A stretch of 63,961 nucleotides of DNA, filler included, from Candidatus Rokuibacteriota bacterium (GCA_031406795.1; 8 parts of 8 records of this genome joined end to end with filler, not necessarily neighbours in it), one strand, 5' to 3'; counted from the first letter of the whole stretch, positions 1-51,858 are shown. The notes: generated by a model not told the origin, from the letters alone. Program-made: numbers and translations.

Positions 1-1674
1 CAGTGCGACATGGGGCCGGTCGAGCAGCTCGGCCTCGTGAAGATCGACCTGCTCTCGCAGCGCTCGCTCGGCGTGCTGCAGGACGCCGTCGCGGCCGTCG
101 AGCGCAACACGGGCACGGCGCCGCCGGTGGACGAGCGCGACGTCATTCTCAACGACCGGCAGACGCGCCGGCTCGTGCGCGAGGGCCGCACGATGGGCTG
201 CTTCTACATCGAGTCCCCGGCGATGCGCTCGCTGCTGTGCAAGCTGCGAACGGAGACCTTCGAGGAACTGACGGCCGCCAGCTCGGTGATCCGCCCCGGC
301 GTCGCCGAGAGCGGCATGATGCAGGAGTACATCCGGCGCCACCACGTCGCCCGGGAGCAAGGCGACACCGCGGCCTGGTACCCGCACCCGAAGCTCGCGG
401 AGGTTTTGCGCGAGACACACGGCGTAATGATCTACCAGGAGGACGTCCTGCGGGTCGCGCACGCGCTCGCCGGCATGAGCCTCGGCCAGGCCGACACGCT
501 GCGCCGCTCGATGAGCGGGAAACTGCGCTCGCCCGAGGCGATGGCGCAGGTGCGCGACGGCTTCATCGCCGGCTGCCGCGCGGGCGGGATCGGACAGAGC
601 ATCGCCGCGGAGACCTGGCGGCAGATCGAAAGCTTCGCCGACTACGCCTTCTGCAAGGCGCACAGCGCCTCCTACGCCCTGCTCTCGCTGCAGGTCGCCT
701 ATCTCAAGGCGCACCACCCGGCGGAGTTCATGGCCGCGGTGATCTCCAACCAGGGGGGCTTTTACGCGGCGGCCGCCTACATCTCCGAATCGCGCCGGCT
801 GGGCCTGCGCATCCTGCTGCCCGATGTGAACCGCAGCGACCGCGACTACGCCGGGCGCGGGCGGGAGATCCGCATGGGGCTCATGGCGTTCGCCGGGTTA
901 GCCGAGGCGGCCATCGAGAGCCTGCTCGCCGCCCGGCGCGAAGGCGGCCCCTTCACCAATCTGTCGGATCTGCTGTCGCGCTCGGGTCTCGGCCGCGGCG
1001 ATCTGGAGCTGCTCGTGCGCGGCGGCGCCTGTGATGGCTTCGAGCTGACGCGGCCGGAGCTGCTCTGGCGGCTGGCGTGCCGGTTTCGGTCGGGAGAGCA
1101 CCCCATCCGCCCAGCCGGAACCCGCGGCGGGCGGGCGGGCGACCTGTTTCCCGGTTCCGGCGGCCTCGACCACCTCGTGCCGCGCCTGCCGGAGTACGAC
1201 CTGCGCGAGCGCTGCCGGATGGAGGAGGAGATCTTCGGGTTCATGGTGACGAGACACCCGCTGGAGCTGATCGAGGAAGGCGCGTCCGCGCCGGGGCCGC
1301 CGCTGATTGCCGCAACCGACATGGCCCGCCATGCGGGGCGGCGCGTCCGCATGCGCGGCCTCGCGATCTCGTACAAACGCATCCCGACGAAGACCGGGAC
1401 CTGGATGAAGTTCCTCTCTCTCGAGGACCTCAGCGGCACTTTCGAGGCGGTGCTCTTCCCCGACGTCTACGCCCGTTGCGCGGAAGCCACGCTCGGCACC
1501 GGGTGTCTCCTCGCGGAGGGACGCGTCACCCTCGACCACGGCGTCCCCTCCCTTACCGTTACGGGCGTTGAAAAGGGCTCAGCTGCGGCGTTGCCCTTCG
1601 CGCATCTGCCTGCGACGGGCACCAGCCCGTCTCGGCATCAGCTTGGCAGGCGCCTTGCATCTGAACCCTTTTGA
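1..1674 (+). CDS. dnaE2: DNA polymerase III alpha-family (DnaE2-like), C-terminal part, 5'-truncated
   Basis: Motifs GLVKIDLL, GCFYIESPAMR, IRPG, GVMIYQED, YAFCKAHSASYA and the OB-fold FLSLEDLSG; the short C-terminus is typical of the error-prone DnaE2 clade. Confidence 0.85.
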   Translation, partial: QCDMGPVEQLGLVKIDLLSQRSLGVLQDAVAAVERNTGTAPPVDERDVILNDRQTRRLVREGRTMGCFYIESPAMRSLLCKLRTETFEELTAASSVIRPGVAESGMMQEYIRRHHVAREQGDTAAWYPHPKLAEVLRETHGVMIYQEDVLRVAHALAGMSLGQADTLRRSMSGKLRSPEAMAQVRDGFIAGCRAGGIGQSIAAETWRQIESFADYAFCKAHSASYALLSLQVAYLKAHHPAEFMAAVISNQGGFYAAAAYISESRRLGLRILLPDVNRSDRDYAGRGREIRMGLMAFAGLAEAAIESLLAARREGGPFTNLSDLLSRSGLGRGDLELLVRGGACDGFELTRPELLWRLACRFRSGEHPIRPAGTRGGRAGDLFPGSGGLDHLVPRLPEYDLRERCRMEEEIFGFMVTRHPLELIEEGASAPGPPLIAATDMARHAGRRVRMRGLAISYKRIPTKTGTWMKFLSLEDLSGTFEAVLFPDVYARCAEATLGTGCLLAEGRVTLDHGVPSLTVTGVEKGSAAALPFAHLPATGTSPSRHQLGRRLASEPF

Positions 1675-4393: not shown

Positions 4394-5200
4394 CTATTTC
4401 TTCGGGGGAGCCGCGGGCGGTTTCTTCGCCGGCGCCGCGGCAGCCGGCACCGGGATGCCAAGCCGCTGGCGCAGCGCGTCCGGTTCAAGCACGCCGGACT
4501 GGAACCGGCCGTCGGCGAAAAGATACGTCGGCGTGCCGGTGATGCCCTTGGCCGAGAGCAGCACGATGGACTCATCGACCAGCTTGGCGCCCTCTGCGCA
4601 CTGGTTGTCGGACTTGTAGCCGTTCTCGAGATCGTCGAAGCCCTTCTTGTCGCACACCACGGCGATGCACTGCTCGCGCGCGCCCTTGTGCATCGGCAGC
4701 GGGAACATCAGCACTTTGATCTGGATCTCGCCCTTGTCCGCCAGCTCCTTGAGGGCCGCACCGGCCCTCTTGCAGTACGGTCAAAGCGGGTCGGTGATGA
4801 AGTAGACCGACGGGCCCTTGGTGCCGACGGTCATCGCGACGAGGGCGTCGACTTTCTTCAGTTCCTCGGGCGAGAGGCTGTTGAGCGCACTGATTGTCTC
4901 TTCGGTGAGATCCCTGCCGCTCGCGGTTTCGATCAGATGCCCGGTGACCAGGTAGGCGCCGGCCGCGTCGGTGTAGACGATGTTCGGTCGGCCCTGGAAG
5001 CTGACCTGGACCTCGCAGAGGCCCTTGAGCGGGGCCGGCGCGACCTTCTTGACTTCGATCGGGCGCTTGAAGACCTCCAGGAGCTGCTTCCCCACCAGTT
5101 CGGCGGTCGGGCACTGGGCGAACGCCGCGGCCGGCAGCGCCAGCCCCAGCACCGACGCGAGCAGCGCGCGTCGGGGAATGGAAACGCGAGTACAGATCAT
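4394..5200 (-). CDS. dsbC: DsbC/DsbG-family thiol-disulfide isomerase, predicted selenoprotein (U140 in UPYC)
   Basis: ORFs 4781..5332 and 4394..4714 share a frame and are separated only by TGA at 4781-4783; readthrough gives ITDPL-U-PYCK. Signal peptide, DsbC dimerisation-like N-domain and GITGTP cis-Pro motif present; AGGGGGG RBS before ATG 5200. Confidence 0.85.
4751..4769 (-). promoter_or_regulatory. Bacterial SECIS-like hairpin
   Basis: GAGGGCCG-GUG-CGGCCCUC perfect 8-bp stem beginning 11 nt after the in-frame UGA, with G in the apical loop. Confidence 0.75.
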
Positions 5201-5410
5201 CGGTGACCCCCCTGTATTAGTCGACAAATCAACGTCATACGTGCAACCGTAGCATATCCGACGCTGAAAAAACACTCTTCGACCCACCAGGAGAATATTC
5301 TGGGGATCGGCAGCGAGGGCGCAGCTCGGCATTTCGTTGCTGGGACAGCCCGGAGACTCTTGCTATACTGAACATCGACACCAACCCGCTGACGAAAGGA
5401 TCCGCCGACC

Positions 5411-6231
5411 ATGACGCACGAGTTCAATTGCATGGCCACCGGTATCGGCAGCCTGCCGCTCACCGACCCTGACGCGGCCGTTGCGCTGGCGCTGCGGTAC
5501 CTCCCCGAGGCGCCCATCTGGCCGCAGCTGCCGAAGCGCGGCTTCCAGGAGCACATGGGCGGCCAGTACAGCGAGGCTCTTCCCGGCATCGTGAGAGACG
5601 AGGTGCGGCAGCGCTTCTCGTTCGACACGACCCAGGATCTCACGCCGGGGCTCGAACACTTTTTCGAGCGCTATCTCGCGAAGGACTATGATTTCTTCGG
5701 GTTATCGGCGGAGCACGCCGCTGGATTCCACGCGCTGCTTCGAGCGCTCGCCGGCAAGCCCCCGGCTCAGGCGCGCTTTCTCAAGGGCCACGTCACCGGC
5801 CCGCTGACCGCCGGGATCTCCTACAAGGACGAGCAGGGCCGGGACATCATCCACAACGAGCAGCTCTACGACGCCGTCGTCAAGAAACTCGCGATGAACG
5901 CCGCCTGGCAGATCCGCAAGCTGGGGGCCTTCGGCAGACCGATCATCGTCTTTCTCGACGAACCGGCAATGGAGACGCTGGGGTCCGCGTTTTCTCCGGC
6001 AGCGCCGGAACTGGTCGCGGAAAAACTGGACGAGATCATCGAGGCGATCCACGAAGCCGGCGGCATCGCCGGGATCCACTGCTGCGGGAATGCCGACTGG
6101 CCCCTGATCTTCAACACCCGGGTCGACATCGTGAACTTCGACGCCTTCGGCTATCTCGAGCGGGTGTTGTTGTATCCGGCGGAAATCCGCACGTTCATCG
6201 CCCGCGGCGGGGCGCTCGCCTGGGGGATCGT
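5411..6231 (+). CDS. Core (single-barrel) cobalamin-independent methionine synthase-like protein, 3'-truncated
   Basis: ATGIGSLP, WPQLP, KGHVTGPLT, FLDEP and GIHCCG motifs; extended -10 TGCTATACT at about 5361-5369. Confidence 0.7.
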
Positions 6232-6331
6232 NNNNNNNNNNNNNNNNNNNNNNNNNNNNNNNNNNNNNNNNNNNNTTAATTAATTAANNNNNNNNNNNNN
6301 NNNNNNNNNNNNNNNNNNNNNNNNNNNNNNN
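6232..6331. other. Artificial contig linker (N run with TTAATTAATTAA); also at 18115-18214, 41925-42024, 46760-46859, 51759-51858, 59595-59694 and 62218-62317
   Basis: Seven identical 100-nt spacers carrying stops in all six frames. Confidence 0.98.
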
Positions 6332-8030
6332 GCGCCAGCACTTCCTCGAGCCTGGCGCGCAATCCGACATCGTCGGGGCGCTGCGCGACCAGGCGCTGGT
6401 AGATCTCCGCCGCGCGTCCGTAGAATCCCTGATTGATGTAGATCGATGCCAGCGTCTCCGTGTCGAATACACCGCGCTCCGCGGCCGCTCCAGCCGGCTC
6501 CGGCTCCGGCTCCCGCTCCACATCTTCATACTCCTCCCCGAAGGAGTCGATGCGCATCTCCCCCGCCAGATCGATCGACGGAATCTCCTCGTGGAGACCG
6601 ATCTCCAGATCCGGAGCGGGCGGCGCTATCGGCTCCGGTTCGGTTTCTTGTTGCGGCTCCGCTGATCCTTCAGGCTCGAGCTCAATCTGGGGCTCAAGCT
6701 CCGCTGCCGCAGACAACGGCGCGGGTTCATCGAGCGGGCCGAAATCCAGCTCCTGCGTCAGATCGATACGCGGGAGCTCCTCCTCCAGACTCATCGGCCG
6801 CTCTTCGCCGCCGGCGGGTGTGAACGTGTCGGCCAGGGGGTACGCCGTGGTTTCGATGTCCAGCTCCCGCGGTCCCGCATCCGCACCGCGATCGGCCTTC
6901 GCTGCAGCCGGAGCAGTGCGGGGACCCGGGTCGCGGGAGAAGTTCTCGAAGGGTGACTCGGAAGCCGGCTCCGGCTCGAACTGCACCTGCCCGGAAACGG
7001 CCGACTCGAGGTCGATTTCGCCGAACGCCACCTGTTCGCCCCTGGTCGATTGCGGCGGCCCGCCGCGCTTCGGACGGCCGAACACCTCGAACGGCGAGGC
7101 TTCCGCATGCGCACCGGCATCCGGCGGCGGCGCCGTCGCTGTCGGCAGAACCGGCGTCTCCGCGGGCGCGGTCTGCTTTTCTCCCCCCCAGGCGAGGCGG
7201 GAGAAGACCTCCAATTCCATCGCGCCGGCGGAAGCGGGAGGTTGCACGGGCAACCACGGTTCGGGCTCGGCCGGATCCAGCGGCTGCGCCGCCCCGAACT
7301 CCTCGAGCGATTCGATCGCGAACGGCAGCGGGGTCGCCGGCTGTGCCTCCGGAGCGCCGAAGATGTCGTCGGCCTGAAGTTCGAGGTCGTCGAGCGCCTG
7401 GATGTCGTCAAACGGCAAGCGGGCGGGAGACGGCTGCACGCCGGACGCCGGTTCCGGTATCACCGTCGCCTGCGGCGGCGGCTGACGGACCGGCTGCGGC
7501 TTCGCGACCTCCGTCGCCTGCGGCGGCACCGGCAGCGGCGGCCTGCTCGGCGGCGCGGCCGGAGCCTGCAGAAGCGGCGGCGGCGGGGCGGGCGGCGGGG
7601 CCGCCCCGGCAAGATTCGCGATGAACTGCTGCGCCTCCTGGTCGCGCGGGTCGAGCAGGAGCACCATCTTGAACGCCTTCTCGGCGGCGGGCAGATCGCT
7701 CTGGCTGTAGGCGATCTGACCGAGGACTTTGTGAGCGATGATGTTGTCGGGGGCGGCCTTGGCGACCTTCTGCATCTCGGCGGCCGCTTCGGCGTACTGC
7801 TTCTTCTCGAAATAGGCGCGGCCGAGAGCCACGCGACCCCCGAGGTAGTTGGGATGGGCCTTCAACCCCTCGAGGGCGGTCTCCGCGGCGTCATCGAGGA
7901 AACCCGCCTTTCGGTAGGCCTCCGCGAGCGGAGCGAAGACCCGGGAGTTCGGGTCCTTGGCGAGGATCTCGAGGTACTTCTCGATCTCCGCCGAGAACGA
8001 TCCCGGGTCACGCTCCTTGTCGTTAGCCAT
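6332..8030 (-). CDS. TPR protein with long Pro/Glu-rich linker, 3'-truncated
   Basis: N-terminal TPRs (FAPLAEAYRKAG, GRVALGRAYF) and C-terminal TETLASIYINQG TPR; lies downstream of aroB. Confidence 0.8.
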
Positions 8031-8065
8031 GAAAGACTTCCCGGTAGGCAACCCTCCCGCTGGCG

Positions 8066-8700: not shown

Positions 8701-9807
8701 TCAACACAAAACACCCTTCAGACTCTCTGAAGGGATATCGCTGTAAAGGTTTGCACTTCCAATCTTTTCTGTCAAGACGAATCTCACCTTTCCGCAGGCG
8801 GCCTTCTTGTCATGGGCCATCGCGGCAATCATGGCCAGGGCGTCCGGGGACGGGTCGTCGACCGGCAAGCCGGCCCGCCGCAGCAGAGTCTCCTGGCGTG
8901 CGGCGTCCGCGGCGCTGCACAACCCAAGTTTCAGCGCGAGGCGGGCCGCGCGGGCGATCCCCCAGCCGACGGCCTCCCCGTGCCGATAGCGCGTGTAGCC
9001 CGTAAGCGTCTCGAGGGCGTGCGCGAAGGTATGCCCGAGATTGAGCAGGCTGCGCCGCCCCCCGGTCTCGCGCTCGTCTTCGGCGACGACCCCGGCCTTG
9101 ATGCGGCAGCAGTTGGCCACGGCGTGCCGCAGTACATCGGGGTCGAGCGCCAGCAAGCGCTCGAGGTTGGTCTCGAGGAACAGGAAGAAATCCGCGTCGA
9201 AGGCGGCTGCGGAACGGATGACTTCCGCCAGCCCCGCGACCAGTTCGCGGCGCGGCAGGGTGCGCAGCGCCGCGAGATCGACGCAGACCGCCGTCGGCTG
9301 GTGAAAGGATCCGATGAGGTTCTTGCCCGCGGGGTGATCGATGGCGACCTTGCCGCCGACGCTCGAGTCGACCTGCGCCAGCAGCGTCGTCGGGCACTGC
9401 ACGAACGGAATGCCGCGCTTGAACGTCGCGGCGGCAAATCCGGCCAGATCGCCGACGACCCCGCCGCCGAGCGCAACTACCGGAGCCGTGCGCTCCAGGC
9501 GCTCCTCGACGAAGCGGTCCCAGAGACCGGAGAGCTGTTCGACCGATTTGGAGGCCTCGCCATCCGGGACGATCATCGTGCGGACCTCGAAGCCCGCGCC
9601 GGCGAGGCTCGCGCGGGCCGTCTCGCCGTAGAGATCGAAGACCGGCGGCACCGACACCAGAGCCAACGTTCCGTACAGGCCGCAGGCCCGCAGGCGCTCG
9701 CCGAGCGTTGGGAGGATGCCCTCGCCGATCCAGATCGGGTAGGCCCGCTCGCCCAGCGCGACGGTGACGGTCTCGACGGGGGCCGAAGGTCCAATCGACG
9801 TTGTCAT
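8701..9807 (-). CDS. aroB: 3-dehydroquinate synthase
   Basis: ALGGGVVGDLAGF, PTTLLAQVDSSVGGK, LNLGHTFAHALE and HGEAV motifs. Confidence 0.95.
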   Translation of the reverse strand: MTTSIGPSAPVETVTVALGERAYPIWIGEGILPTLGERLRACGLYGTLALVSVPPVFDLYGETARASLAGAGFEVRTMIVPDGEASKSVEQLSGLWDRFVEERLERTAPVVALGGGVVGDLAGFAAATFKRGIPFVQCPTTLLAQVDSSVGGKVAIDHPAGKNLIGSFHQPTAVCVDLAALRTLPRRELVAGLAEVIRSAAAFDADFFLFLETNLERLLALDPDVLRHAVANCCRIKAGVVAEDERETGGRRSLLNLGHTFAHALETLTGYTRYRHGEAVGWGIARAARLALKLGLCSAADAARQETLLRRAGLPVDDPSPDALAMIAAMAHDKKAACGKVRFVLTEKIGSANLYSDIPSESLKGVLC

Positions 9808-9838
9808 GCTTTCCCGTCCGGAAATCGGTTCATGTCTC

Positions 9839-9917
9839 GTAGGCGAGGGGTTCATTCCCTCCCGCCTGTCCCCGTGAATCGTGTTTTGCCACGGGCGGGG
9901 GTCAACCCCGCCCCTAC
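9839..9917. repeat. Inverted pair of GTAG-family REP palindromes (REPIN-like)
   Basis: GTAGGCGAGGGGTTCATTCCCTCCCG ... CGGGCGGGGGTCAACCCCGCCCCTAC; related copies at 21640-21699 and 61080-61151. Confidence 0.85.
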
Positions 9918-10133
9918 GGATGCATAGTCCAGGGTCGGGAGCATTTTTTCGGTGACCCGCATCACGATGCCGCTCACCGGCACGTTTCTCACCGACAAGA
10001 TCTTCACCGACAGATTCCTCGTCAACAGGTTACTCAACCACACGTTCCTCACTGACAGAATCTTCACAGACAGATTCCTCGTCGATAGGCCGCTCACCGA
10101 CGGATTCCTCGTCGACAGGTTACTCACCGGCAC
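9852..10133 (-). CDS. Putative 93-aa pentapeptide-repeat microprotein
   Basis: Open frame through the whole array (RNLSV/KILSV/SNLST), co-oriented with and overlapping the aroK stop; differences between matching units are synonymous in this frame. Confidence 0.45.
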   Translation of the reverse strand: MPVSNLSTRNPSVSGLSTRNLSVKILSVRNVWLSNLLTRNLSVKILSVRNVPVSGIVMRVTEKMLPTLDYASVGAGLTPARGKTRFTGTGGRE

Positions 10134-10140
10134 GTTCCGC
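9961..10140. repeat. 12 x 15-nt degenerate tandem repeat
   Basis: Units such as ACCGACAGATTCCTC, ACCGACAAGATCTTC and GTCGACAGGTTACTC in exact 15-nt register. Confidence 0.92.
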
Positions 10141-10756
10141 CGCGGCGGGCCGCCATGTCACGGGCGCGAGCCGCGTCGGCTTGACGGCCGGCGTGATCCA
10201 CCGCCTGCAGGACCGCCTCGGCGGAACCGGCGGGCGTCAGTTCGGTCGTGTCGACACGCAGTCGGTAGCGACGGTAGTCCTGCATGCGGCGCACCAGAAG
10301 CGCACGGACCGTGGCGGGTGCGTCCGTGCCGGCCAGCAGCGGGCGGTCCTTCGAGCGGCCGACGCGCCTGAGGATCACCTCGGGGGGCGCGGTCAGCAGC
10401 ACCACCGGCCCCGTTCCCCGCAGCAGCGCGCGGTTGCGCTCGAAACAGACGGCGCCCCCGCCGAGCGCGACCACCGCGCCGGGGCCGCTCACCACCGCTT
10501 TGAGGGCACGGTGCTCGGCGTTGCGAAAAGCGCGCTCACCGTGCTGCGCGAAAATTTCCGCCACGCTCAAGCCTTCCTCGCGAACGATCGCCGCGTCGAG
10601 GTCGATCCACGGCACCCCGATGGTCCGCGCGATCGCCTTGGCGGTCGCGGTCTTGCCGGTTCCCATGAACCCCGCCAGGTAGACGTTCTTCCCGGCGGCG
10701 ATCAGCCGCTCAGCCCGCGTCCGCGAGTCGCTTCGCGAAGGCCTGCCAGTGCTCAC
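10124..10756 (-). CDS. aroK: Shikimate kinase (start uncertain)
   Basis: YLAGFMGTGKT P-loop, DLDAAI, FRNAE, ALGGG and RPLL motifs. Confidence 0.92.
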   Translation of the reverse strand: MSTGRPSRSDSRTRAERLIAAGKNVYLAGFMGTGKTATAKAIARTIGVPWIDLDAAIVREEGLSVAEIFAQHGERAFRNAEHRALKAVVSGPGAVVALGGGAVCFERNRALLRGTGPVVLLTAPPEVILRRVGRSKDRPLLAGTDAPATVRALLVRRMQDYRRYRLRVDTTELTPAGSAEAVLQAVDHAGRQADAARARDMAARRGGTCR

Positions 10757-11867
10757 GCATCTCACGGATGCTGTCCCCTCCGAATTTTTCCCGCATCGCC
10801 CCCGCCAACTCCAGCGCGAGCGCCGCCTCGGCGACGACCCCGAGGGCCGGCACGGCGCAGACATCCGCCCGCACCACGGCCGCCTTGCCCGTGACGCCAC
10901 CGCGCAAGCTGGCGCTGGCGAGGGGTTTCTTCAGCGTCGGGATCGGCTTCATCGCGACGCGGAAGGTGACTGTTTCGCCGTTGGTAATCCCGCCCTCGAT
11001 CCCGCCGGCCCGGTTGCTCTTGCGGTACCAGCCCCACGGCTTGCCCTTCGCGCGATAGATGGCGTCGTGGACCTGCGAACCGGCGCGCGCGGCGGCGGCG
11101 AAACCGAGACCGTTCTCGACGCCCTTCACGCCGGGCAGCGCCATCAGCGCCGCGGCGATCCGCCCCTCGATGCGCAGGTCGCTCTGGGTATGGCTCCCGA
11201 GGCCCGGGGGGACCCCTTCGGCGTCGATGCGCACGATGCCCCCGAGCGAATCGCCGGCTGAGGCTGCGGCGTCGATGACGCGCACCATGGCCGCGGAGAG
11301 CGCGGCGTCGGGGCAGCGCACCGACGAACGCTCGGCGCGGCGGCGCACCGCGTCCGAAATCCGCTCCGGGAAGGTCTTGCCGACCCCGCCGATCGCCTCG
11401 ACGAAGGAGTGCACGCGGATGCCGAATTCGGCGAGCAGTTGTTTCGCACAGGCGCCGAGCGCGACCCGCGCGGCGGTCTCACGGGCGCTGGCGCGCTCGA
11501 GAACGTCGCGGATGTCATCCAGCTCGTACTTGATGGCGGCGGGGAGGTCGGCATGCCCGGGACGCGGGAAAACCAGCGGCTTGTAGTCCGGCGGGCGGAC
11601 ACTGACCTGCTCGGTTCCGCGGTTCTTCACCAGCAGCGCGATGGGGGCGCCCGTCGTGCGGCCGAAACGCACGCCGCCGAGGAATTCAGCATGGTCCTTC
11701 TCGATCGCCATCCGGGCGCCGCGGCCGTGACCGAGTTGACGACGCGCAAGTTCCGGGTCGACGTCCCCGGAGCCGAGCACGAGCCCGGCGGGCATCCCCT
11801 CGAGGATCGCCAGCAGCGCCGGACCGTGCGACTCGCCCGCCGTGTAGTGTCTCCAGACCATGCCCAT
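10710..11867 (-). CDS. aroC: Chorismate synthase
   Basis: TAGESHG, PRPGHAD, ERASARETAARVA, GGIEGGITNG and MKPIPTL motifs. Confidence 0.96.
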   Translation of the reverse strand: MGMVWRHYTAGESHGPALLAILEGMPAGLVLGSGDVDPELARRQLGHGRGARMAIEKDHAEFLGGVRFGRTTGAPIALLVKNRGTEQVSVRPPDYKPLVFPRPGHADLPAAIKYELDDIRDVLERASARETAARVALGACAKQLLAEFGIRVHSFVEAIGGVGKTFPERISDAVRRRAERSSVRCPDAALSAAMVRVIDAAASAGDSLGGIVRIDAEGVPPGLGSHTQSDLRIEGRIAAALMALPGVKGVENGLGFAAAARAGSQVHDAIYRAKGKPWGWYRKSNRAGGIEGGITNGETVTFRVAMKPIPTLKKPLASASLRGGVTGKAAVVRADVCAVPALGVVAEAALALELAGAMREKFGGDSIREMREHWQAFAKRLADAG

Positions 11868-11960
11868 CCTCCTGCCTGACCGCCGAGAGCCCCCATCACG
11901 CTGATCCGCGTGAGAGGGCGCGATGCGATGTCCCTGACGGCAGCCGGCCCGTTAAAATGA

Positions 11961-11989
11961 CAATGCACCCGCACGATGCGGGTGCATTG
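11961..11989. terminator. Perfect 13-bp stem-loop between pilQ and aroC
   Basis: CAATGCACCCGCA-CGA-TGCGGGTGCATTG, followed on the minus strand by TCATTTTAA. Confidence 0.55.
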
Positions 11990-12019
11990 ACCTGCGTCCG
12001 CGTCGCCTGCCGCGGCGTC

Positions 12020-14737
12020 CTACATCACCACGATTCGCGGCGTGATGAAGATCATCAGCTCGCGCTTGTTCTGATTTTTCGACTTGTTCTTGAAGAGCCA
12101 GCCGAGAATGGGAATCTTCGAGAGACCGGGAATGGAGTCGGAACCGTCGGTGGCGTCCTCGATGAAGATGCCGCCGATGACGGTCGTCTCGCCGTCGGCG
12201 ATCAGGACCTTCGATTGGGCCTTGCTGGTGTTGACGGAGAACATCGTGCCCTCGGTCGTCTGGACGTTCTGTCCCTGGGAGGACTTTTCGATCATGATGT
12301 CCATGAAGACCCGCTTGTCGTTGGTGATCTGCGGCTTGACGTCGAGGGTGATGCCGATCGGTTTCCACTCCACCGTCCTGTTGCCTTCCGCATCGGTCTT
12401 CGGGATGGGCAACTCGCTGCCGAGGACGATCTTGGCCTGCTGGTTCTGGACCACCAGGACCTTGGGATTGGACAGGATCTTGACCTTGCTCATGCTCTCG
12501 CCCGCGGAGAGCCGCAGATCCAGCGAGAGCGTGTTCGCGATGTGGCCGAGCGAGAAGCCGATCCCGCCCGTCGAAACCGCCGAGGGGAGGTTGACGAGGT
12601 AGTTGGTCGGCATCGCCCCCTTGGCGGAGTCCAGTTGCTGACCGCCGATGCTCACCGAATTCGGGAACGCGAACTGGGTCGCATTGCCGTGGGCCGTGTC
12701 CTTGATGGAGTCGGCATTCCACTGGACGCCGATGGACTGGCTGAAGTTGTTCGTGACTTCGACGATCCGGGCCTCGACCATGACCGCCGGCGTGGGAGCA
12801 TCCCAGGAGAGAATCACCTGCTCGAGTTCGGCGAGCTTCTGCGCCGTGTCCGAGACGATGACGTGCTTCGTGCGCTGGTCGAACTGGATGTTGCCCTGCG
12901 CCGACTTGAATTTCTCCAGCTTGCCGACGAATTCCTGCATGTTGGCCGCCTCGATGTAGGAGATCGAGAAGGTCTTGGAGAAGACCGGCTCGAGCGCCTT
13001 CTGCGCTTCGACCGTCTTCTTCTTGTCCTCTTCCATGCGGCGGCGACGCTGCTCCTCATCCATAATCTTGTCGGCGGTCGTGATGCGCACAATGTTTTCC
13101 GACTCGCGAATCTGCGACAGCTGCGGCACGTTCGTCTTGAGGATAAGATCGAGCGCCTGGTCCCACGCTACGTCGGCGAGTTTAATCGAGACTGTGCCCT
13201 TGACCTCGGGCCCGGCGACGAAGTTCAGCCCCGAGACTTCGGAGATCAGACGCAGGATATCGTTGACCTCCGCGTCCTTGAAGTCCAGCGAGAGGCGGCG
13301 CCCGGTGAAGCCCGTCGCCGCGGGGGCGGGGGCGGAGGCCACGGTGACTCCGGCTGGTGCGGCGGCTCTTGCCGGCGCATCGGCGGCAACCGGCGCGGGA
13401 ACTTCCGCCGCCCCCGCCACCGGCGGCGCAATCGCGGCCACGATTGCCGCGGGATTCTCGAAATCGATCACTATCCCCGCACCATCGGCGGTGGCGCGGA
13501 ACGGCACCGGCCGGCGCAGTTGGGCGACCACGCGGACGAATTGGGCGTCGCCCTTGGCATAGGGGAACGCGGTGACCTTGACCACGGCGAGCCTCTGAGC
13601 GGCCAGATCGAGGACCCTGGCGTCCTTCTCCGCAATTCTCGCGTTGGCGATCTCGATGATGATCCTGGCCGGGTCGCCCGAGTCCACGAGCGTGAAGTCC
13701 GGCTTGACGGCCGTGCGGATTTCGAGCCGCGTGACGGCGTCACGCGGGCGACAGGTGACCGGGCCGACCGTGTTCAGCGCGGTCATCGCGCCCTGGCTGG
13801 CGGCGGCCGGGGCCGCAACGCTCGCGGTCAGCGCCGGGGCGCCGAAGGAAACCACGATCCGGTTGCCCACGGTCTCGACGCGATGCTCGCGGACCTTCTT
13901 CAGATCGAAGACCACCCGGAGGAACTTCTTCGGCTGTTCGTGCTCCCCTATCCGGATCTGGGTGACCCAGGAATCGTCGACTTTCCTCTTCAGCGGCCAG
14001 ACCTTGTTGCGCGCGCCCGGGAGGTCGATGACCAGGCTTTTGCCTTCGACCAGGAAGTAATCGTGCTTCAGCGGAGTGTTGCCTTGCAGCGTGACGACCA
14101 GTCCGTCGGCCAGCTTCTGGACATCGATTGCCGCGAGAGTCGGGGGTCCGGTGGGGACGACGACCTCCGGAGCGGGCGCAGCAACGACCGGTTCAGCGAC
14201 GGCGACGGGGACCACCTCGGCGGTCGTGGCGACCGGCGCTGCCTGCTCCTGTTTCGCGGGCTCGGGAGGGGTGACGACGTCTGCTGCCGGCGGAATCACC
14301 GCCACGGGAGGCTTCGGCGTGACCTTCAGGACCACGCTGGTTCCCCGGCCCTCGACGTCGTAGAGGGCCTCGGCCGAAAGAAACACCTCGACGATGCCGT
14401 TGGCCCCCGAGGAGGTTGCCTTAACCATCGACACCGCCCCCCGGTGAACCGGAATCGTCCGATCCGCGCCGGCAACGCGAAGGCCCGTGAGCTGCAGATA
14501 CAGACGCGGGGGCGTGGTCTGCCGCACCAGGCTGTAGGCCGCCTTGGCGCCGGCGACCACGGTGACTTGAACGGCGTCGTCCGTCCCGGAAACCTGGATA
14601 TCGGTGATCTCCGCGGGCTTTGCGGCCGGTGCCACCGCCTTCTTCGGCGCCTGGGCGAGCCCCCCGCCGCAACCGGCGAGCAACCACACCGCCAAGGCCC
14701 CGCAGGAGGCCCAACTCATCAATCTCCCGGTAGCCAT
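12020..14737 (-). CDS. pilQ: Type IV pilus secretin with multiple AMIN domains
   Basis: GRRLSLDFKDA, VMVEARIVE and IPGLSKIPILGWLFK...RELMIFITPRIV motifs; operon position. Confidence 0.95.
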   Translation of the reverse strand: MATGRLMSWASCGALAVWLLAGCGGGLAQAPKKAVAPAAKPAEITDIQVSGTDDAVQVTVVAGAKAAYSLVRQTTPPRLYLQLTGLRVAGADRTIPVHRGAVSMVKATSSGANGIVEVFLSAEALYDVEGRGTSVVLKVTPKPPVAVIPPAADVVTPPEPAKQEQAAPVATTAEVVPVAVAEPVVAAPAPEVVVPTGPPTLAAIDVQKLADGLVVTLQGNTPLKHDYFLVEGKSLVIDLPGARNKVWPLKRKVDDSWVTQIRIGEHEQPKKFLRVVFDLKKVREHRVETVGNRIVVSFGAPALTASVAAPAAASQGAMTALNTVGPVTCRPRDAVTRLEIRTAVKPDFTLVDSGDPARIIIEIANARIAEKDARVLDLAAQRLAVVKVTAFPYAKGDAQFVRVVAQLRRPVPFRATADGAGIVIDFENPAAIVAAIAPPVAGAAEVPAPVAADAPARAAAPAGVTVASAPAPAATGFTGRRLSLDFKDAEVNDILRLISEVSGLNFVAGPEVKGTVSIKLADVAWDQALDLILKTNVPQLSQIRESENIVRITTADKIMDEEQRRRRMEEDKKKTVEAQKALEPVFSKTFSISYIEAANMQEFVGKLEKFKSAQGNIQFDQRTKHVIVSDTAQKLAELEQVILSWDAPTPAVMVEARIVEVTNNFSQSIGVQWNADSIKDTAHGNATQFAFPNSVSIGGQQLDSAKGAMPTNYLVNLPSAVSTGGIGFSLGHIANTLSLDLRLSAGESMSKVKILSNPKVLVVQNQQAKIVLGSELPIPKTDAEGNRTVEWKPIGITLDVKPQITNDKRVFMDIMIEKSSQGQNVQTTEGTMFSVNTSKAQSKVLIADGETTVIGGIFIEDATDGSDSIPGLSKIPILGWLFKNKSKNQNKRELMIFITPRIVVM

Positions 14738-14765
14738 TATCAGCCGTCCTCCTTGAATACCGCGG

Positions 14766-15359
14766 TCACTTCCCCGCGGTGGGGTGGGATTTCAGGAAGG
14801 TTTCCTTCCTGGTCTCCCGGTTCATGAAATCCAGGAATTTCTCGAGGACGCGAATCCCCTTGAGCGAGATCTCGACGATTTCACCCTCGTTCTTCCCCAT
14901 GATGGTCCCGACGCGGACGACGAATGTCTGGTTGTTCGGCGCCCGAACCATCGCCTGTGCGCCGCTCACGGGATCAATGACGACGCCGACGACCTTGAGC
15001 ACCTCCAGTTCAACCTGCTGGATTGGGGGAAGCTGGGAGAGATCGCGCTGCTTCTTCTCCAGTTCCAGCAGCGACTTGAACGGGTCTCTACGGCCGGTGG
15101 CATCGTAGCGAAACTCGCTGCTGGGAACGAGAAGTTCGCCCGGGGCCGAGAGCGGGGGGACGGCCGGGTTCACCGCCGCCGGGGCCGCAGCGGGTTGCTG
15201 GACCGGTGCGGCAACGACGGCAGGGACCGCCACCTTCGCCGGCGCGGTCACGCCGCCTTCACCCGGGGAAGCGGGAGCGGCGCCGAGCAGGGACGGGCTC
15301 GCGGCGAACGCGAGCGCCACCAGGAGCGCTGCGGCGAGCCGGCTACTTGTCCTGGACAT
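14766..15359 (-). CDS. pilP: Type IV pilus assembly protein PilP
   Basis: YDATGRRDPF and MGKNEGEI motifs; operon position. Confidence 0.88.
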   Translation of the reverse strand: MSRTSSRLAAALLVALAFAASPSLLGAAPASPGEGGVTAPAKVAVPAVVAAPVQQPAAAPAAVNPAVPPLSAPGELLVPSSEFRYDATGRRDPFKSLLELEKKQRDLSQLPPIQQVELEVLKVVGVVIDPVSGAQAMVRAPNNQTFVVRVGTIMGKNEGEIVEISLKGIRVLEKFLDFMNRETRKETFLKSHPTAGK

Positions 15360-15915
15360 AGCGGTAGGTCGTCGCGGTACAGGTGGACGTCAGCATGAGG
15401 TAGCCCTCCTTCACCTGCGGATTGCCCATGGAGAGGTTCGAAATGCTGATGATCCGCGGGTAGTGGCTGATCTTGTCGAGAAAGAGCCCGATGTTGTGGA
15501 AGGGACCGCGAATCGCCAGCGCCATGGGCACCTCGTTGTAGAAGTCTCTCTTGTTCTCGGCCGAAGGCCGGAAGGAGATGAACTCGATTCCCGCCTCCTT
15601 GCCGAAGCGGGCGATCTGCTCGAGCAGGACCGGGATTTCGCGCTCGCCGGGCAGCTGCAGCCGGGCCTGGTCGAGCTGGCCGCTGAGGTCGGCGATCATC
15701 CGCTTGTATTCCTTGTTCTTCGCCTCGATCGTCTGCAGGACCTGAACCTCGCTCGAGAGGGTGTTCAACCGGTTCCGGTCGGCCACGATTATCGCGGCCT
15801 TCGGCGCATAGACGAGGTAGTAAAACCCGACGCAGATCATCACCATCAGGATCGCGAGAGCCAGAGCCCTCTGCTTGAGCGGTATCTTCTCGAATTGTTC
15901 CAGGATCGCTGCCAT
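15343..15915 (-). CDS. pilO: Type IV pilus assembly protein PilO
   Basis: N-terminal TM, LPGEREIPVLL and FYNEVP...GPFHNIGLF motifs. Confidence 0.9.
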   Translation of the reverse strand: MAAILEQFEKIPLKQRALALAILMVMICVGFYYLVYAPKAAIIVADRNRLNTLSSEVQVLQTIEAKNKEYKRMIADLSGQLDQARLQLPGEREIPVLLEQIARFGKEAGIEFISFRPSAENKRDFYNEVPMALAIRGPFHNIGLFLDKISHYPRIISISNLSMGNPQVKEGYLMLTSTCTATTYRYVQDK

Positions 15916-15933
15916 TGCCCCGCTGCCTCCCGC

Positions 15934-16485
15934 CTAGTCCGGCTGTTCCACGCCGGCCTTGATGCTGAAGCGAAATACCTCACGGCCCTGAATCTCGCTG
16001 CGCTCGGAGAAGAGCAACTCGACGCCCTTGTAGTACGGCGACTTTTCGAGGTTGTCGACCATCGGGCGCAAAGCTTCGTGGCTGAGTGAGAAGCCGTCGA
16101 GCGCAACGCCGCCCGCAGTGTACGCGTAGTTGGTGATCCAGATCGGCGTGCCGGCGTCGAGAACCCGGGTGAGCTCGTCGAGCAGGTGAACCGGCACGAT
16201 CCGCTCCTGCTGCAGCTTGGTGATGATCGCCAGCTTGCGTTCGAGCTCGCCCTTCTCCTTCTCGAAACGAACCTTCTCCTCGTTGACGTTCTTGAGCCGA
16301 TCCTTCTCGGCCGACTGCTTGGCAATCTGGCCCCGCAGCGAAGCGAGCTTCCCGCTCTGATCGACCCAGACCCAGCCGAGGCCCACCGCCAGAAACACCA
16401 GCGCCGCGAGGCCGAGAACCAGGTGCTGAATGGCAAAGGCTTTCTTCTTCGAGGTCTTTTTCGCCAGCAGGTTGATCCGGATCAT
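15934..16485 (-). CDS. pilN: Type IV pilus assembly protein PilN
   Basis: MIRINLL N-terminus, TM segment and coiled coil. Confidence 0.92.
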   Translation of the reverse strand: MIRINLLAKKTSKKKAFAIQHLVLGLAALVFLAVGLGWVWVDQSGKLASLRGQIAKQSAEKDRLKNVNEEKVRFEKEKGELERKLAIITKLQQERIVPVHLLDELTRVLDAGTPIWITNYAYTAGGVALDGFSLSHEALRPMVDNLEKSPYYKGVELLFSERSEIQGREVFRFSIKAGVEQPD

Positions 16486-17537
16486 CGGTCGCCCGCCTTC
16501 CGAAGCGCCAGCCCGACGGCGACGGCCGCGGCGGGGGCGTGCTCGTTCAAGTACTCGGCGTCGAACTTCTTCGGGTTGATCTTGAGGTTCTGCAGGGGGT
16601 TGTTCACCTGCACCTGGATCTTGAGCCGCTGGCTGAGGAAGGCGTCGAGTTGCTTGACCCGGGCGCTGCCGCCGGAGATGAGGATCTGGTGGATCTCCTG
16701 GTCGGACGTGGTGGCCCGGAAGAAATCGAACGAGCGCTGGATTTCAACGGCGATGTTCTCGCTCACCGTGTCCATGACCCGCCGCACGGCCTCGGGGTCG
16801 GCGGCGGCCTCCTGGCCGGTCTTGACCCGCTCGGCCTGCTCGGCGCTCAGGCCGAACTCCTTCTGGATGGCGTCGGTGTAGTGGTTGCCGCCGATCGAGA
16901 TGTCCCGGGTGAACGAAGTCATGCCGTTGCGCAGCACCCCGATGTTCGTGAATCCGGCGCCGATGTTCACGAGCGCGATGTTCTGTCCGGGGACGACTTC
17001 GTAATTGATCTCCCAGGAGTTCTGGAGCGCGAAAGCGTCGAGGTCGACCACGGCGGGCTGCAGGCCGGCCTGGATCAGCAGATCGGTGTAGTCGTCGATC
17101 TTGTCCTTCTTGGCTGCAACGAGGAGCACGTCCATCTTGCCGTCCTCGGAGGAACCGCCCTGGATGATCTGGAAATCGAGGTTCACGTCGTCGATGTCGA
17201 AGGGGATGTACTGTTCGGCCTCCCAGTGGATGGATTCGTCGAGCTCGGCCTCGGTCATCTCGGGAAGACTGATCTTCTTGACGATCACCGAGTGCCCGGA
17301 GAGCCCCATCGCCGCCTGGGTGCACTTGATCTTGTGTTCGCGCAGCAGTCCCTGCAGGCATTCGACAATGGCCCCTTTGTCCAGGATCGCGCCATCGACG
17401 ATTGCCTGCGACGGCACCGGGGCGATGCCGAAACTCTGCAGGTTGATCGACTTCCCGGACAGCTTCAGCTCCACGAGTTTGATGGAGTGCGTGCCGATGT
17501 CGACCCCGACCACATCCTTGGACTTAAACAACCCCAT
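16482..17537 (-). CDS. pilM: Type IV pilus assembly ATPase PilM
   Basis: VGVDIGTHSIK, WEAEQYIPF, ISGGSA and AVGLALR motifs. Confidence 0.95.
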   Translation of the reverse strand: MGLFKSKDVVGVDIGTHSIKLVELKLSGKSINLQSFGIAPVPSQAIVDGAILDKGAIVECLQGLLREHKIKCTQAAMGLSGHSVIVKKISLPEMTEAELDESIHWEAEQYIPFDIDDVNLDFQIIQGGSSEDGKMDVLLVAAKKDKIDDYTDLLIQAGLQPAVVDLDAFALQNSWEINYEVVPGQNIALVNIGAGFTNIGVLRNGMTSFTRDISIGGNHYTDAIQKEFGLSAEQAERVKTGQEAAADPEAVRRVMDTVSENIAVEIQRSFDFFRATTSDQEIHQILISGGSARVKQLDAFLSQRLKIQVQVNNPLQNLKINPKKFDAEYLNEHAPAAAVAVGLALRKAGDR

Positions 17538-17609
17538 GGCCCAAGTCCGTCCTCTGTTAAGGTTCAGGGTGGCCTTGCACGGGGGCCAAACACACCCCAT
17601 GCGTGTCCG

Positions 17610-18114: not shown

Positions 18115-18214
18115 NNNNNNNNNNNNNNNNNNNNNNNNNNNNNNNNNNNNNNNNNNNNTTAATTAATTAANNNNNNNNNNNNNNNNNNNNNNNNNNNNNN
18201 NNNNNNNNNNNNNN

Positions 18215-36486: not shown

Positions 36487-37068
36487 GTGGGACAGGCAGC
36501 GACGAAGCGGGACGCGAGGTACACCTATGCCGACTACCTCCGGTGGTCCAACGACGAGCGTTGGGAGCTGATCAACGGCGTCGCCTTCAACATGACGCCG
36601 GCGCCGTCGCGGAAGCATCAGAAGATCTCATGGGAGTTGGCGCAGCAAATCGGCGCCCATCTGCGGGGAAAGAAGTGTCAGGCTTACGCCGCCCCCTTCG
36701 ACGTGCGCCTCCCGGCGCCCGGCGAATCCGACGAAACGACGAGCACCGTCGTCCAACCTGATCTGGTTGTAGTCTGCGACCAGGCGAAGCTTGACGATCG
36801 GGGATGCAAAGGCGCACCGGACCTGGTGATCGAGATCATTTCTCCCGATTCGGTGGCCCGGGACATGAGGGAGAAATGCAACCTATATGAGCGGGCCGGG
36901 GTTGCGGAGTACTGGATCGTCCACCCGACAGACCGGATTGTGTCGATTTTCCGCCGGGGTCCGGATGGACTCTACGGGAAGCCGGATGTCCACACCGCCG
37001 AGGAGCGCATTTCCGTCGGTGTTCTGCCAGAATTGGAAATCGACCTCGCGCCGGTTTTTGCAGAATGA
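36487..37068 (+). CDS. Uma2-family PD-(D/E)xK nuclease, copy 1
   Basis: RWELINGV, VVQPDLVVVCD, GAPDLVIEIISP and GVAEYWIV motifs. Confidence 0.92.
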   Translation: MGQAATKRDARYTYADYLRWSNDERWELINGVAFNMTPAPSRKHQKISWELAQQIGAHLRGKKCQAYAAPFDVRLPAPGESDETTSTVVQPDLVVVCDQAKLDDRGCKGAPDLVIEIISPDSVARDMREKCNLYERAGVAEYWIVHPTDRIVSIFRRGPDGLYGKPDVHTAEERISVGVLPELEIDLAPVFAE

Positions 37069-37442: not shown

Positions 37443-38045
37443 ATGGCACGGGCAGCAACGAAACGCGATGAGAGGTACATCTACGCCGACTATTTGCGCT
37501 GGCCGGATGACGAGCGCTGGGAGTTGATCGATGGCGTCGCGTACAACATGATTCCAGCGCCGACCCGCCTGCACCAGGAAGTTTCACGAGAACTATTGCG
37601 GCAGTTCGCCAACCACCTGCTGGGCAAGCGCTGCCAGGTGTATGACGCTCCCTTCGATGTGCGCCTGCCCGCGCCGGGCGAGTCGGACACGGCCGCAAGC
37701 ACCGTGGTACAGCCGGACCTGGTGGTGGTCTGTGACCACGCGAAGCTCGACGAGCAAGGTTGCAAGGGCGCGCCGGATCTGGTTGTCGAGATCCTTTCGC
37801 CGGCTACTGCGGCAAAAGACTTGAAAGAAAAGTTCGTCCTCTATGAGCGCGTCGGGGTCGTAGAATACTGGATTGTCCATCCGGTGGAAAAGGCGGTCAC
37901 GATCTACCGTCGTGATCCCGAGGGTCTGTACGGCCGGCCCTCGGTGTACACGGCAGGCGACCGTATTCCCGTCGCCTTCTTGCCGGAGTTGGAGATCGAC
38001 CTCGCGACGGTGTTCATCGAGCCGGGTACGGAAGAAGCGGTCTGA
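37443..38045 (+). CDS. Uma2-family nuclease, copy 2
   Basis: Close paralogue of 36487-37068 with the same motifs. Confidence 0.92.
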   Translation: MARAATKRDERYIYADYLRWPDDERWELIDGVAYNMIPAPTRLHQEVSRELLRQFANHLLGKRCQVYDAPFDVRLPAPGESDTAASTVVQPDLVVVCDHAKLDEQGCKGAPDLVVEILSPATAAKDLKEKFVLYERVGVVEYWIVHPVEKAVTIYRRDPEGLYGRPSVYTAGDRIPVAFLPELEIDLATVFIEPGTEEAV

Positions 38046-41924: not shown

Positions 41925-42024
41925 NNNNNNNNNNNNNNNNNNNNNNNNNNNNNNNNNNNNNNNNNNNNTTAATTAATTAANNNNNNNNNNNNNNNNNNNN
42001 NNNNNNNNNNNNNNNNNNNNNNNN

Positions 42025-45304: not shown

Positions 45305-45727
45305 TCAGTACTTTTTATCCAAGAAGGCCCTGGGGGTAAGGACCCTGGTCCCCTTGATGGAACGACCATAGAGAGCCTTGAAATCGGCCGTGTTGCCCGT
45401 GAGGAAGAAGCTGGCGCGGGCGGCGATTGCGGCAGAGAGAAGAAGTCCGTCTTTCTCAGGCAGTTTCAGATCCAATGCCAGATCGGCATCCGGAACCGTC
45501 AGACAGGAAGCCGCAAGTTTCTTCAGGGCAGGCAATGCTGCCGGCCTCTTTCGGCGAAGGTTGTCAGTTGCTTCTTCGAGCGCGAGCGGCGAAATAAGGA
45601 GACGCAACCGCCCCACGGCCTGAAGCACAAGAAGTAGGCCAAGAAGCGTATTCTCCGGTCCCGACCAGCAGATCGAAAAAAGAATGTTGCTGTCGAGAAA
45701 AACGGTTACCGCTTCTTCGGTTTCCAT
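45305..45727 (-). CDS. PIN-domain (VapC-like) toxin
   Basis: VFLDSNILFS, LEEA, KDGLL and LTGN motifs. Confidence 0.85.
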   Translation of the reverse strand: METEEAVTVFLDSNILFSICWSGPENTLLGLLLVLQAVGRLRLLISPLALEEATDNLRRKRPAALPALKKLAASCLTVPDADLALDLKLPEKDGLLLSAAIAARASFFLTGNTADFKALYGRSIKGTRVLTPRAFLDKKY

Positions 45728-45957
45728 TTTGCGAGAATGCGCTCCCGTTCACCAGGGCGCAATTCGTTCTCGACCTCGAGTCGGCGAATGAACTCGTCGC
45801 TGTAGACCCGCACCGGAACCGTGCGCGCCGGACGGATCACAAGCGTGTTCCCAGACTCCTCCATGATGACGGCGGAACGCGGCTTGATGCCGAGGCGGTC
45901 CCGAATCTCCTTGGGGATCGTGACCTGTCCCCGCTCACCGACAAGGCTGACCGACAT
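45706..45957 (-). CDS. AbrB/MazE-type antitoxin
   Basis: GERGQVTIPKEIRDRLGI motif; AGGAGG RBS; overlaps the toxin gene. Confidence 0.9.
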   Translation of the reverse strand: MSVSLVGERGQVTIPKEIRDRLGIKPRSAVIMEESGNTLVIRPARTVPVRVYSDEFIRRLEVENELRPGERERILAKWKPKKR

Positions 45958-46019
45958 GACGGCTCACCTCCTTGCAACGCAAGATACATGTTTTCCTACT
46001 ATAAGTAAATATGCAGCCA

Positions 46020-46148
46020 TCAGCCCAGATGACGCGGCTGCTCCCGATACTGGATCGACTCGGCGATGTGGGTGATGCCGATCTTTCGCTCGCCCGCCAG
46101 ATCTGCGATCGTCCGCGCAACTTTCAGCACTCGCGCATGGGAGCGCGA
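46020..46148 (-). pseudogene. comM: 3'-terminal relic of comM/yifB (Mg-chelatase-like ATPase)
   Basis: Hand translation SRSHARVLKVARTIADLAGERKIGITHIAESIQYREQPRHLG* resembles the ComM C-terminal consensus. Confidence 0.78.
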
Positions 46149-46407
46149 GAAGGCCACTCCGACCTTCCCCTACTGGCCGAAGATCATCGGATTCCTCGGC
46201 TACAGCCCCTACGACCCGGGCTGGACGCACGGGGAACGGCTGACCGGGATCCGGAGGTACCTCGGGCTGACCCAGGAGGCTGTGGCCCGGCGCCTACGGG
46301 TGGACCCGGGGACGCTGGCGAGGTGGGAGCGGGGGGAGAGGGAGCCAAAGACGGAGCACATTCGTCAAATGGGTAGAGGTTTTCTGAGTGGATCTTCGCG
46401 GGCTTGA
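46138..46407 (+). pseudogene. 5'-truncated XRE-family HTH protein
   Basis: GERLTGIRRYLGLTQEAVARRLRVDPGTLARWERGEREP; upstream sequence is comM antisense. Confidence 0.65.
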
Positions 46408-46414
46408 TGTGTGG

Positions 46415-46759
46415 CTACAATTCGGCAGCGGGCAGGATCGTTCCCAGAGCGTCGATGAGTGGCGGCAGATCCTCGGTGACGATCGTCCACAGGATGTCGA
46501 AATCGACCTGATCGTATCCGTGTATGAGACGGTTCCGGAGGCTGATGATCTCCGTCCATGGGATTGCCGGGTACCTGTCCTGCTCCGGCTTCGGCACCCT
46601 GGCGGCGGCTTCACCGACGACCTCGAGGAGCCTTACCAGCGACAGATTGAGCTTCCGGTCGGTGTCCAGGTCGGCACGGGATTTCCCCCGGGCCATCTCG
46701 ACCGCCTCCCGCGCATGGTCGAGCATGTGGCGAAGGGAAACGCCGGGGTCACGGTGCGA
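46415..46759 (-). CDS. HepT-like (DUF86) ribonuclease toxin, at contig edge
   Basis: LEVVGEAA and IPW..I..LRNRLIHGYD (RX4HXY) motifs. Confidence 0.88.
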   Translation of the reverse strand, partial: SHRDPGVSLRHMLDHAREAVEMARGKSRADLDTDRKLNLSLVRLLEVVGEAAARVPKPEQDRYPAIPWTEIISLRNRLIHGYDQVDFDILWTIVTEDLPPLIDALGTILPAAEL

Positions 46760-46861
46760 NNNNNNNNNNNNNNNNNNNNNNNNNNNNNNNNNNNNNNNNN
46801 NNNTTAATTAATTAANNNNNNNNNNNNNNNNNNNNNNNNNNNNNNNNNNNNNNNNNNNNAC

Positions 46862-51758: not shown

Positions 51759-51858
51759 NNNNNNNNNNNNNNNNNNNNNNNNNNNNNNNNNNNNNNNNNN
51801 NNTTAATTAATTAANNNNNNNNNNNNNNNNNNNNNNNNNNNNNNNNNNNNNNNNNNNN

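Follow-up and report, generated by a model that had tools for sequence, protein, structure and literature searches.

A candidate DsbC-type selenoprotein encoded across a single in-frame TGA codon in a Candidatus Rokuibacteriota genome

Does the TGA codon at 4781-4783 on the minus strand of this DNA end a gene, or is it read as selenocysteine (Sec) inside one? In the window, by which we mean the whole stretch of DNA analyzed (63,961 nucleotides, filler included, from a Candidatus Rokuibacteriota bacterium, GCA_031406795.1), translation of 5200..4394 (-) with TGA taken as U gave 268 residues with a single recoded codon, U140 (4783..4781), in the context VYFITDPL-U-PYCKRAG. Under genetic code table 11, the frame is broken into two same-frame ORFs, 4781..5332 and 4394..4714 (-). 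The original prediction had described two ORFs in one frame that are split by a single TGA, and its coordinates, residue count, motif and spacing were all correct. A start at 5200 is consistent with the length of 138-139 aa that the N-terminal halves of the relatives have (see below). The features of the locus, all on the minus strand, are as follows:

4394..5200, minus strand: candidate recoded CDS of a DsbC-type thiol:disulfide isomerase with Sec at position 140; 268 codons followed by a TAG stop at 4394-4396
5117..5200, minus strand: putative signal peptide, residues 1-28; recognized by eye from Arg-Arg at 5168-5173 and A-F-A before Gln29-Cys30
4901..5110, minus strand: DsbC_N (dimerisation) domain, residues 31-100; PF10411, E 2e-13, 50.1 bits against a cut-off of 25
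4460..4825, minus strand: thioredoxin-fold catalytic domain, residues 126-247, running across the TGA; PF13098 (Thioredoxin_2), E 1.2e-09
4772..4783, minus strand: predicted active-site motif U-P-Y-C, residues 140-143, in which the TGA (4781-4783) is the N-terminal, nucleophilic residue
4751..4769, minus strand: SECIS-like hairpin with a perfect 8-bp stem (4769-4762 with 4758-4751) and the loop GUG (4761-4759)

A global reassignment of TGA is excluded, since among 40 further crude ORFs of the window, 16 end in this codon. Scanning the window for in-frame TGA codons flanked on either side by high third-position GC gave six candidates, among which only 4783(-) was credible; the other five, which lie on the plus strand against genes called on the minus strand and carry no redox motif, were taken as antisense artefacts.

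The thioredoxin-fold domain that spans the TGA is also matched by PF01323 (DSBA, E 2.2e-07), and a profile of eight full-length relatives matches the solved DsbC and DsbG chains. In the profile alignment, the TGA column coincides with the first Cys of CGYC in 4npb and 1eej. This bears directly on the proposal that the TGA replaces the first catalytic Cys of a TDPxCPYC motif, and both the Cys-type relatives and the DsbC structures align in just this way. The AlphaFold model (mean pLDDT 85.5) places residue 140 between the strand 131-136 and the helix 141-155. When the model was compared with solved structures by Foldseek, the top matches were DsbG (2h0h, 1v57) and DsbC (4ilf, 1eej, 4npb), with E values from 1.5e-12 to 2.3e-10 over 221-235 alignment columns, that is, over nearly the full length. 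The TM scores of these matches were just 0.43-0.55, which we attribute to the domain orientation, and the full-length structure matches were 17-24% identical. Among the NCBIfam models the best matches were DsbG and DsbC, both far below their equivalog cut-offs (NF008657, 45.9 bits against 124; NF008129, 36.6 bits against 215). The protein is a member of the DsbC/DsbG family but belongs to a distinct subfamily. Its G-T-P loop and its second Cys pair, C183/C201, are invariant.

The N-terminal domain carries an extra pair of cysteines, C30 (5111-5113) and C62 (5015-5017) on the minus strand, which are invariant in the 8-sequence alignment and are Cys in 107 and 108 ungapped alignments, respectively, with no other residue seen at either position. 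We know of no such pair in E. coli DsbC; in the present protein the two cysteines may form a structural disulfide. Upstream of them, the N-terminus (M-I-C-T-R-V-S-I-P-R-R-A-L-L-A-S...) looks like an export signal by eye, and the model has a pLDDT below 50 at residues 1-9 and 18-26. R10-R11 is followed by A-L-L, and of 118 N-terminal halves, 109 have an RR pair within their first 20 residues; no RR is seen in the aligned signal peptides of the Cys-type relatives P0004-P0010. Residues 1-42 gave no NCBIfam match at E<=10, including none to a curated twin-arginine model. As judged from the conserved RR, the putative signal peptide may direct export by the Tat pathway.

To which codon does the TGA correspond in related DNA? 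A genome scan yielded 155 confirmed relatives, and in the best 80 of the 155 loci, which were kept, the aligned codon was TGC in 53, TGT in 26 and TGA in one; one of the two patterns used for the scan required a Cys, so that these counts are biased against TGA forms. In the 8-sequence alignment, the TGA column is Cys in all seven other full-length relatives. The single TGA locus is the closest relative, L001, from a Candidatus Rokubacteria MAG (contig CAVOVE010000013.1), which encodes an 83% identical protein and has syntenic neighbouring genes. Whether relatives keep both the TGA and the hairpin had been named as a check of the Sec reading, and L001 retains both in identical form: 47 consecutive identical nucleotides run across the TGA and the hairpin with the same fold, while the flanks differ. 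The longest run of identical codons between the window and L001 comprises codons 138-152. In the 119 codons downstream of the TGA we counted 20 synonymous and 12 non-synonymous differences, as against 28 synonymous and 30 non-synonymous differences in the 138 codons upstream of it. As the hairpin is identical in the two TGA-bearing DNAs, it offers no covariation, and we counted this against the Sec reading.

A far larger set of relatives was found among public proteins that stop short of the active site. The near-length protein search gave 98 relatives among 8000 scored candidates; in the alignment of the top 20, the full-length relatives have TDPxCPYC, and five proteins of 147-157 aa (58-81% identity) terminate exactly at TDPL or TDPM. 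The search for shorter proteins gave 306 matches among 732 candidates, and of the best 120 that we examined, 118 end at TDP[L/M/Q], one of them being the window's own N-terminal piece, and the remaining two are C-terminal pieces. Besides the window, at least 122 protein clusters (117 + 5) therefore stop at exactly the residue before U140, in line with the expectation that standard pipelines would split the gene. For these approximately 122 truncated relatives, which are known as proteins, a stop at this place is inferred, and the TGA itself is read in only two DNAs, a point that we also counted against the Sec reading. One of the N-terminal halves, from Candidatus Methylomirabilia, is named 'disulfide isomerase DsbC N-terminal domain-containing protein' by NCBI. 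The frameshifted call P0014 has, across this region, the same shifted-frame peptide as the window ORF 4572..5114; this fits identical nucleotides but fixes the codon merely as T-x-A, and P0014 was left out of the count.

The downstream half (128 aa after the TGA) was searched in the same way and gave 130 matches at E<=1e-10 among 347 candidates, from which 119 C-terminal halves of 92-134 aa were compared, the window's own being excluded. Their mean identity to the query was 82.5%, against 78.1% for the 117 N-terminal halves, and C183, C201, T223 and P224 are retained in 97 of 97 ungapped C-half alignments. By these comparative measures, the downstream half is under purifying selection. At least 13 pairs of N- and C-terminal halves have a longest contig of equal size (>5 kb), which suggests that the members of these pairs lie side by side on the same contigs.

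Behind the TGA, a spacer of 11 nt (4780..4770 (-)) leads to the stem of the hairpin, and the E. coli fdhF SECIS likewise has an 11-nt spacing. The predicted lower stem extends to approximately 4728-4788 and thus includes the TGA. The 66-nt region folds with -30.7 kcal/mol (z = -2.6), and one of 200 shuffles folded equally well. The bSECIS consensus has a loop of 3-9 nt with G in one of its first two positions, an upper stem of 4-16 bp, a UGA-to-loop distance of 16-37 nt and an MFE <= -7.5 kcal/mol (PMC13188914). With its GUG loop (3 nt), 8-bp stem, 19 nt to the loop and -14.8 kcal/mol, the hairpin lies within all of these ranges, and the predicted perfect 8-bp hairpin with a G-containing loop 11 nt downstream was confirmed; with 3 nt, the loop is as short as the consensus allows, which we counted against the Sec reading. 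As a chance control, each of the 1412 TGA trinucleotides that the window has on its two strands was examined for the bSECIS geometry (stem of at least 4 bp). The hairpin ranked fifth, five sites including itself being equal or better (0.35%), and the loose threshold of -7.5 kcal/mol was reached by 10.7% of the TGA sites; hairpins are common in the window because of its G+C content of 65.8%. Alone, the hairpin is unusual but not unique, and its weight comes from its position behind a TGA at the catalytic codon. The strongest post-TGA hairpins in the control scan were those at ~11935-12000 (+) (-22.5 kcal/mol) and 9875-9925 (+) (-19.1 kcal/mol), which lie at gene ends or between genes and are probably terminators. 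Rfam gave no match, either for the whole window at the gathering score or for 4600-4900 at E<=10; since bacterial SECIS elements barely resemble each other (PMC13188914), this null result was not counted against a SECIS.

The decoding of UGA as Sec would also depend on a dedicated machinery. No tRNA-Sec, and indeed no tRNA, was found in the 64 kb of the window, and no SelA, SelB or SelD domain among its 52 ORFs (Pfam); L001 (20.8 kb) likewise has no tRNA, and no SelA, SelB or SelD domain among its 14 ORFs. Since the window and L001 are small parts of their genomes, the missing machinery is weak counter-evidence. Use of Sec is reported for the phylum: a review that cites Deng et al. 2026 credits one Methylomirabilota MAG with 63 predicted selenoprotein genes, and Sec-type [NiFeSe] hydrogenases are reported to occur in Methylomirabilota.

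Is the gene then simply broken? The TGA could have arisen from TGC or TGT by nonsense mutation, or through an error of sequencing or assembly, and the gene would then be dead or misread; this requires a change of one base, the locus is called as two ORFs and the window's assembly has masked stretches. Against it, the same TGA occurs in the independent genome of L001, a stop at the identical residue is shared by at least 122 further protein clusters, conservation is higher in the downstream than in the upstream halves, with key residues invariant, and synonymous differences exceed non-synonymous ones downstream. A TGA conserved in this manner, together with a conserved downstream half, does not belong to a dead gene, and we regard a pseudogene or an error as extremely improbable. 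The two ORFs could also be genuine proteins that need no recoding, namely a DsbC_N-domain protein ending at Leu139 and a C-terminal fragment initiated near residue 163-165, as would fit the internal Met or Val (MFPL...) at which most of the called C-terminal halves begin and the domain-protein name that NCBI gives to an N-terminal half. However, a fragment from ~165 would be devoid of the xPYC motif and of the first helix of the thioredoxin fold, and the 22 codons between the TGA and such a start would be non-coding, yet they keep PYCK as in the Cys-type relatives and are identical in L001. With the break falling exactly at the catalytic codon, a pair of separate proteins is very unlikely.

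Harder to tell apart by comparison of sequences is a UGA that is recoded to something other than Sec. Delivery of Cys at UGA by a SelC-like tRNA with a SelB paralogue is a known system, and near-cognate read-through (Trp or Cys) would also yield a full-length protein. Sequence analysis holds no evidence of selenium, any hairpin-dependent mechanism would look alike, and Cys is evidently functional at this position in P0003, a Cys-type relative with 73% identity. Nevertheless, for a UGA with a hairpin at the first CxxC position of a thioredoxin fold, Sec is by far the commonest outcome in the selenoproteome literature, and the phylum is reported to be rich in selenoproteins; a UGA kept just for Cys would have no evident advantage over TGC. 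We therefore consider recoding to another amino acid highly unlikely as well. The locus is very probably one gene for a secreted isomerase or reductase of the DsbC/DsbG family with Sec as its first active-site residue (U-P-Y-C). The domains, the fold, the alignment of the TGA with Cys, the hairpin and the conservation all lend support to the Sec-containing DsbC-type isomerase that had been predicted.

How would such a protein be made and act? In the mechanism that we propose, the mRNA hairpin 11 nt past UGA140 would serve as a bacterial SECIS and bind SelB-GTP-Sec-tRNA(Sec), placing this complex at the ribosomal A site so that UGA would be read as Sec and translation would continue to the TAG at 4394-4396. 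The 268-aa product would be exported by means of its N-terminal signal peptide, dimerise through the DsbC_N domain and be maintained in the reduced state by a DsbD/CcdA-type reductant. In proteins of the envelope, its selenolate would attack sulfenylated cysteines or mispaired disulfides, and the resulting selenenylsulfide intermediate would be resolved by Cys143. The single frame, the domains and the fold, the match of the TGA to Cys, the geometry of the hairpin, the conserved position of the stop and the selection on the downstream half were observed; the SelB/SECIS decoding, the Sec insertion, the export, the dimerisation and the catalytic chemistry are what we infer. The predicted function is either that of an isomerase or that of a sulfenic-acid reductase.

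The Cys-type relative P0003 deserves closer attention. It is a full-length protein with TDPLCPYC at the active site, and its sequence shows that Sec would be dispensable in the clade, a point that we counted against the Sec reading. A quick tree of the N-terminal domain was built from 46 rows, 35 of Sec type and 11 of Cys type. The Sec-type rows were every fourth of the motif-ending proteins among P0102-P0220, P0002 and five from the near-length search; P0039 and P0047 were left out, as their site had been missed by the motif pattern. This tree is poorly resolved, with 27 of 43 inner branches open, and is compatible with one origin of the Sec form as well as with several. In it, P0003 lies inside a weakly supported group (SH-aLRT 84) that contains 27 Sec-type rows. 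A recent switch between Sec and Cys may be the reason for the existence of P0003.

Compared with DsbC and DsbG of Enterobacteria (1eej, 4npb, 1v57; NF008129, NF008657), the window protein has the same DsbC_N domain and the same thioredoxin fold with a helical insert. Further features common to both are the G-T-P loop, the xPYC/CxYC with which the first helix begins and another pair of cysteines (C183/C201 in the window protein). It differs from them in having the predicted Sec in place of the first active-site Cys, and its clade adds the invariant C30/C62 and the conserved RR of the signal peptide. The Cys-type orthologues (L002-L080, P0004-P0010), which come from Thermodesulfobacteriota and other MAGs, agree with the window protein in length and domains as well as in the invariant cysteines and the TDPxCPYC context, with identities of 40-52%, but have TGC or TGT where the window has TGA, and K-K-A-E in the hairpin region where the window protein has K-R-A-G.

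Several UxxC selenoprotein families are known, among them DsbA-like, DsbG-like, thiol:disulfide interchange and thiol-disulfide isomerase-like proteins (PMC1088965, PMC1794560, PMC2398784, PMC9312934, PMC13188914). That Sec typically replaces the N-terminal Cys of CxxC in thioredoxin-fold selenoproteins, as the original prediction had stated, is established in the selenoproteome tables. The 'DsbG-like' family (COG1651/PF13462/NF041057) is likewise predicted to have a Dsb-type thioredoxin fold with UxxC. By contrast with that family, the window protein gave no NF041057 match at E<=10, where the HMMER filters may drop weak ones, and no PF13462 match at E<=0.01, and it has a DsbC_N domain, which goes unmentioned in the selenoproteome texts searched.

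With the 'thiol:disulfide interchange protein' selenoprotein family, as described, the window protein shares UxxC and PF13098. We take the conserved domain cd02953 to be of the DsbD-gamma type, i.e. without a DsbC_N domain. In the GOS paper, a family named thiol:disulfide interchange protein is labelled cd02953. The selenoprotein family of this name is described as UxxC proteins with PF13098 that occur in Geobacter and Syntrophus, with WP_011366075.1 as the exemplar. The window protein may belong to this family or sit beside it.

The word 'DsbC' is absent from the searched texts of PMC1794560, PMC2398784, PMC9312934, PMC13188914 and the deep-Sep paper, the supplements of which may list the protein, and a literature search gave no paper on selenocysteine and DsbC among bacterial selenoproteins, although Deng et al. 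2026 may list it. Only tentatively, and with some doubt, do we suggest a Methylomirabilota/Rokubacteria clade of periplasmic U-P-Y-C selenoproteins of DsbC architecture, possibly Tat-exported, which would be unpublished as such and is split in well over 100 public protein clusters.

The surroundings of the gene provided several observations in their own right. Divergent from the dsbC-like gene, 5411-6283 (+) encodes a 290-aa protein with a masked end and no Pfam match at E<=0.001; this gene adjoins the dsbC-like gene in L001 too, with 87% nucleotide identity. Seven pairs of 44-base N runs, each with 12 bases between the runs, are present in the window (6232-6331, 18115-18214, 41925-42024, 46760-46859, 51759-51858, 59595-59694 and 62218-62317), and interrupt several ORFs, such as 5411-6283 and 6276-8051 at their ends. 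A DNA polymerase III alpha gene is present in two pieces: its C-terminal part (finger and HHH) occupies 1-1671 (+), and its N-terminal part (PHP and NTPase) is found at 60750-62270 (+), where it is followed by a masked stretch and, behind that, by a DDE transposase gene (62450-63511 (-)). In L001, the two polymerase parts are contiguous and lie beside an ImuB/DinB-like gene and lexA, in what looks like a dnaE2-type cassette. The layout in the window points to a contig that is circularly permuted or mis-joined, or to an IS element that has interrupted the gene.

Elsewhere in the window, a type IV pilus assembly cluster (pilM-pilN-pilO-pilP-secretin, 12020-17600 (-)) is adjoined by chorismate synthase and 3-dehydroquinate synthase genes (8701-11867). 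Two neighbouring Uma2-family genes (putative restriction endonucleases; 36487-37068 and 37443-38045 (+)) have near-equal Pfam scores and are probably a tandem duplicate. Small genes of the toxin-antitoxin type at 45706-46726 comprise those for a MazE-like antitoxin (45706-45957 (-)), an HTH protein (46066-46407 (+)) and a HepT-like ribonuclease (46415-46726 (-)).

Because Sec at the first CxxC position of thioredoxin-fold redox proteins is well established, the finding opens no new question. If the tentatively suggested clade is real, it would provide the first selenoenzyme with DsbC architecture in the bacterial system for disulfide isomerisation in the envelope. For annotation, it concerns a gene that, with at least 122 relatives, is stored as a truncated 'DsbC N-terminal domain' protein and an orphan C-terminal ORF; recognition of the Sec codon would restore a single enzyme and add a marker of selenium use for Methylomirabilota/Rokubacteria. 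The window protein and P0003 would moreover form a natural Sec/Cys pair at 73% identity, with which selenolate and thiolate could be compared cleanly, on a well-understood isomerase scaffold, for disulfide isomerisation or sulfenic-acid repair in the cell envelope.
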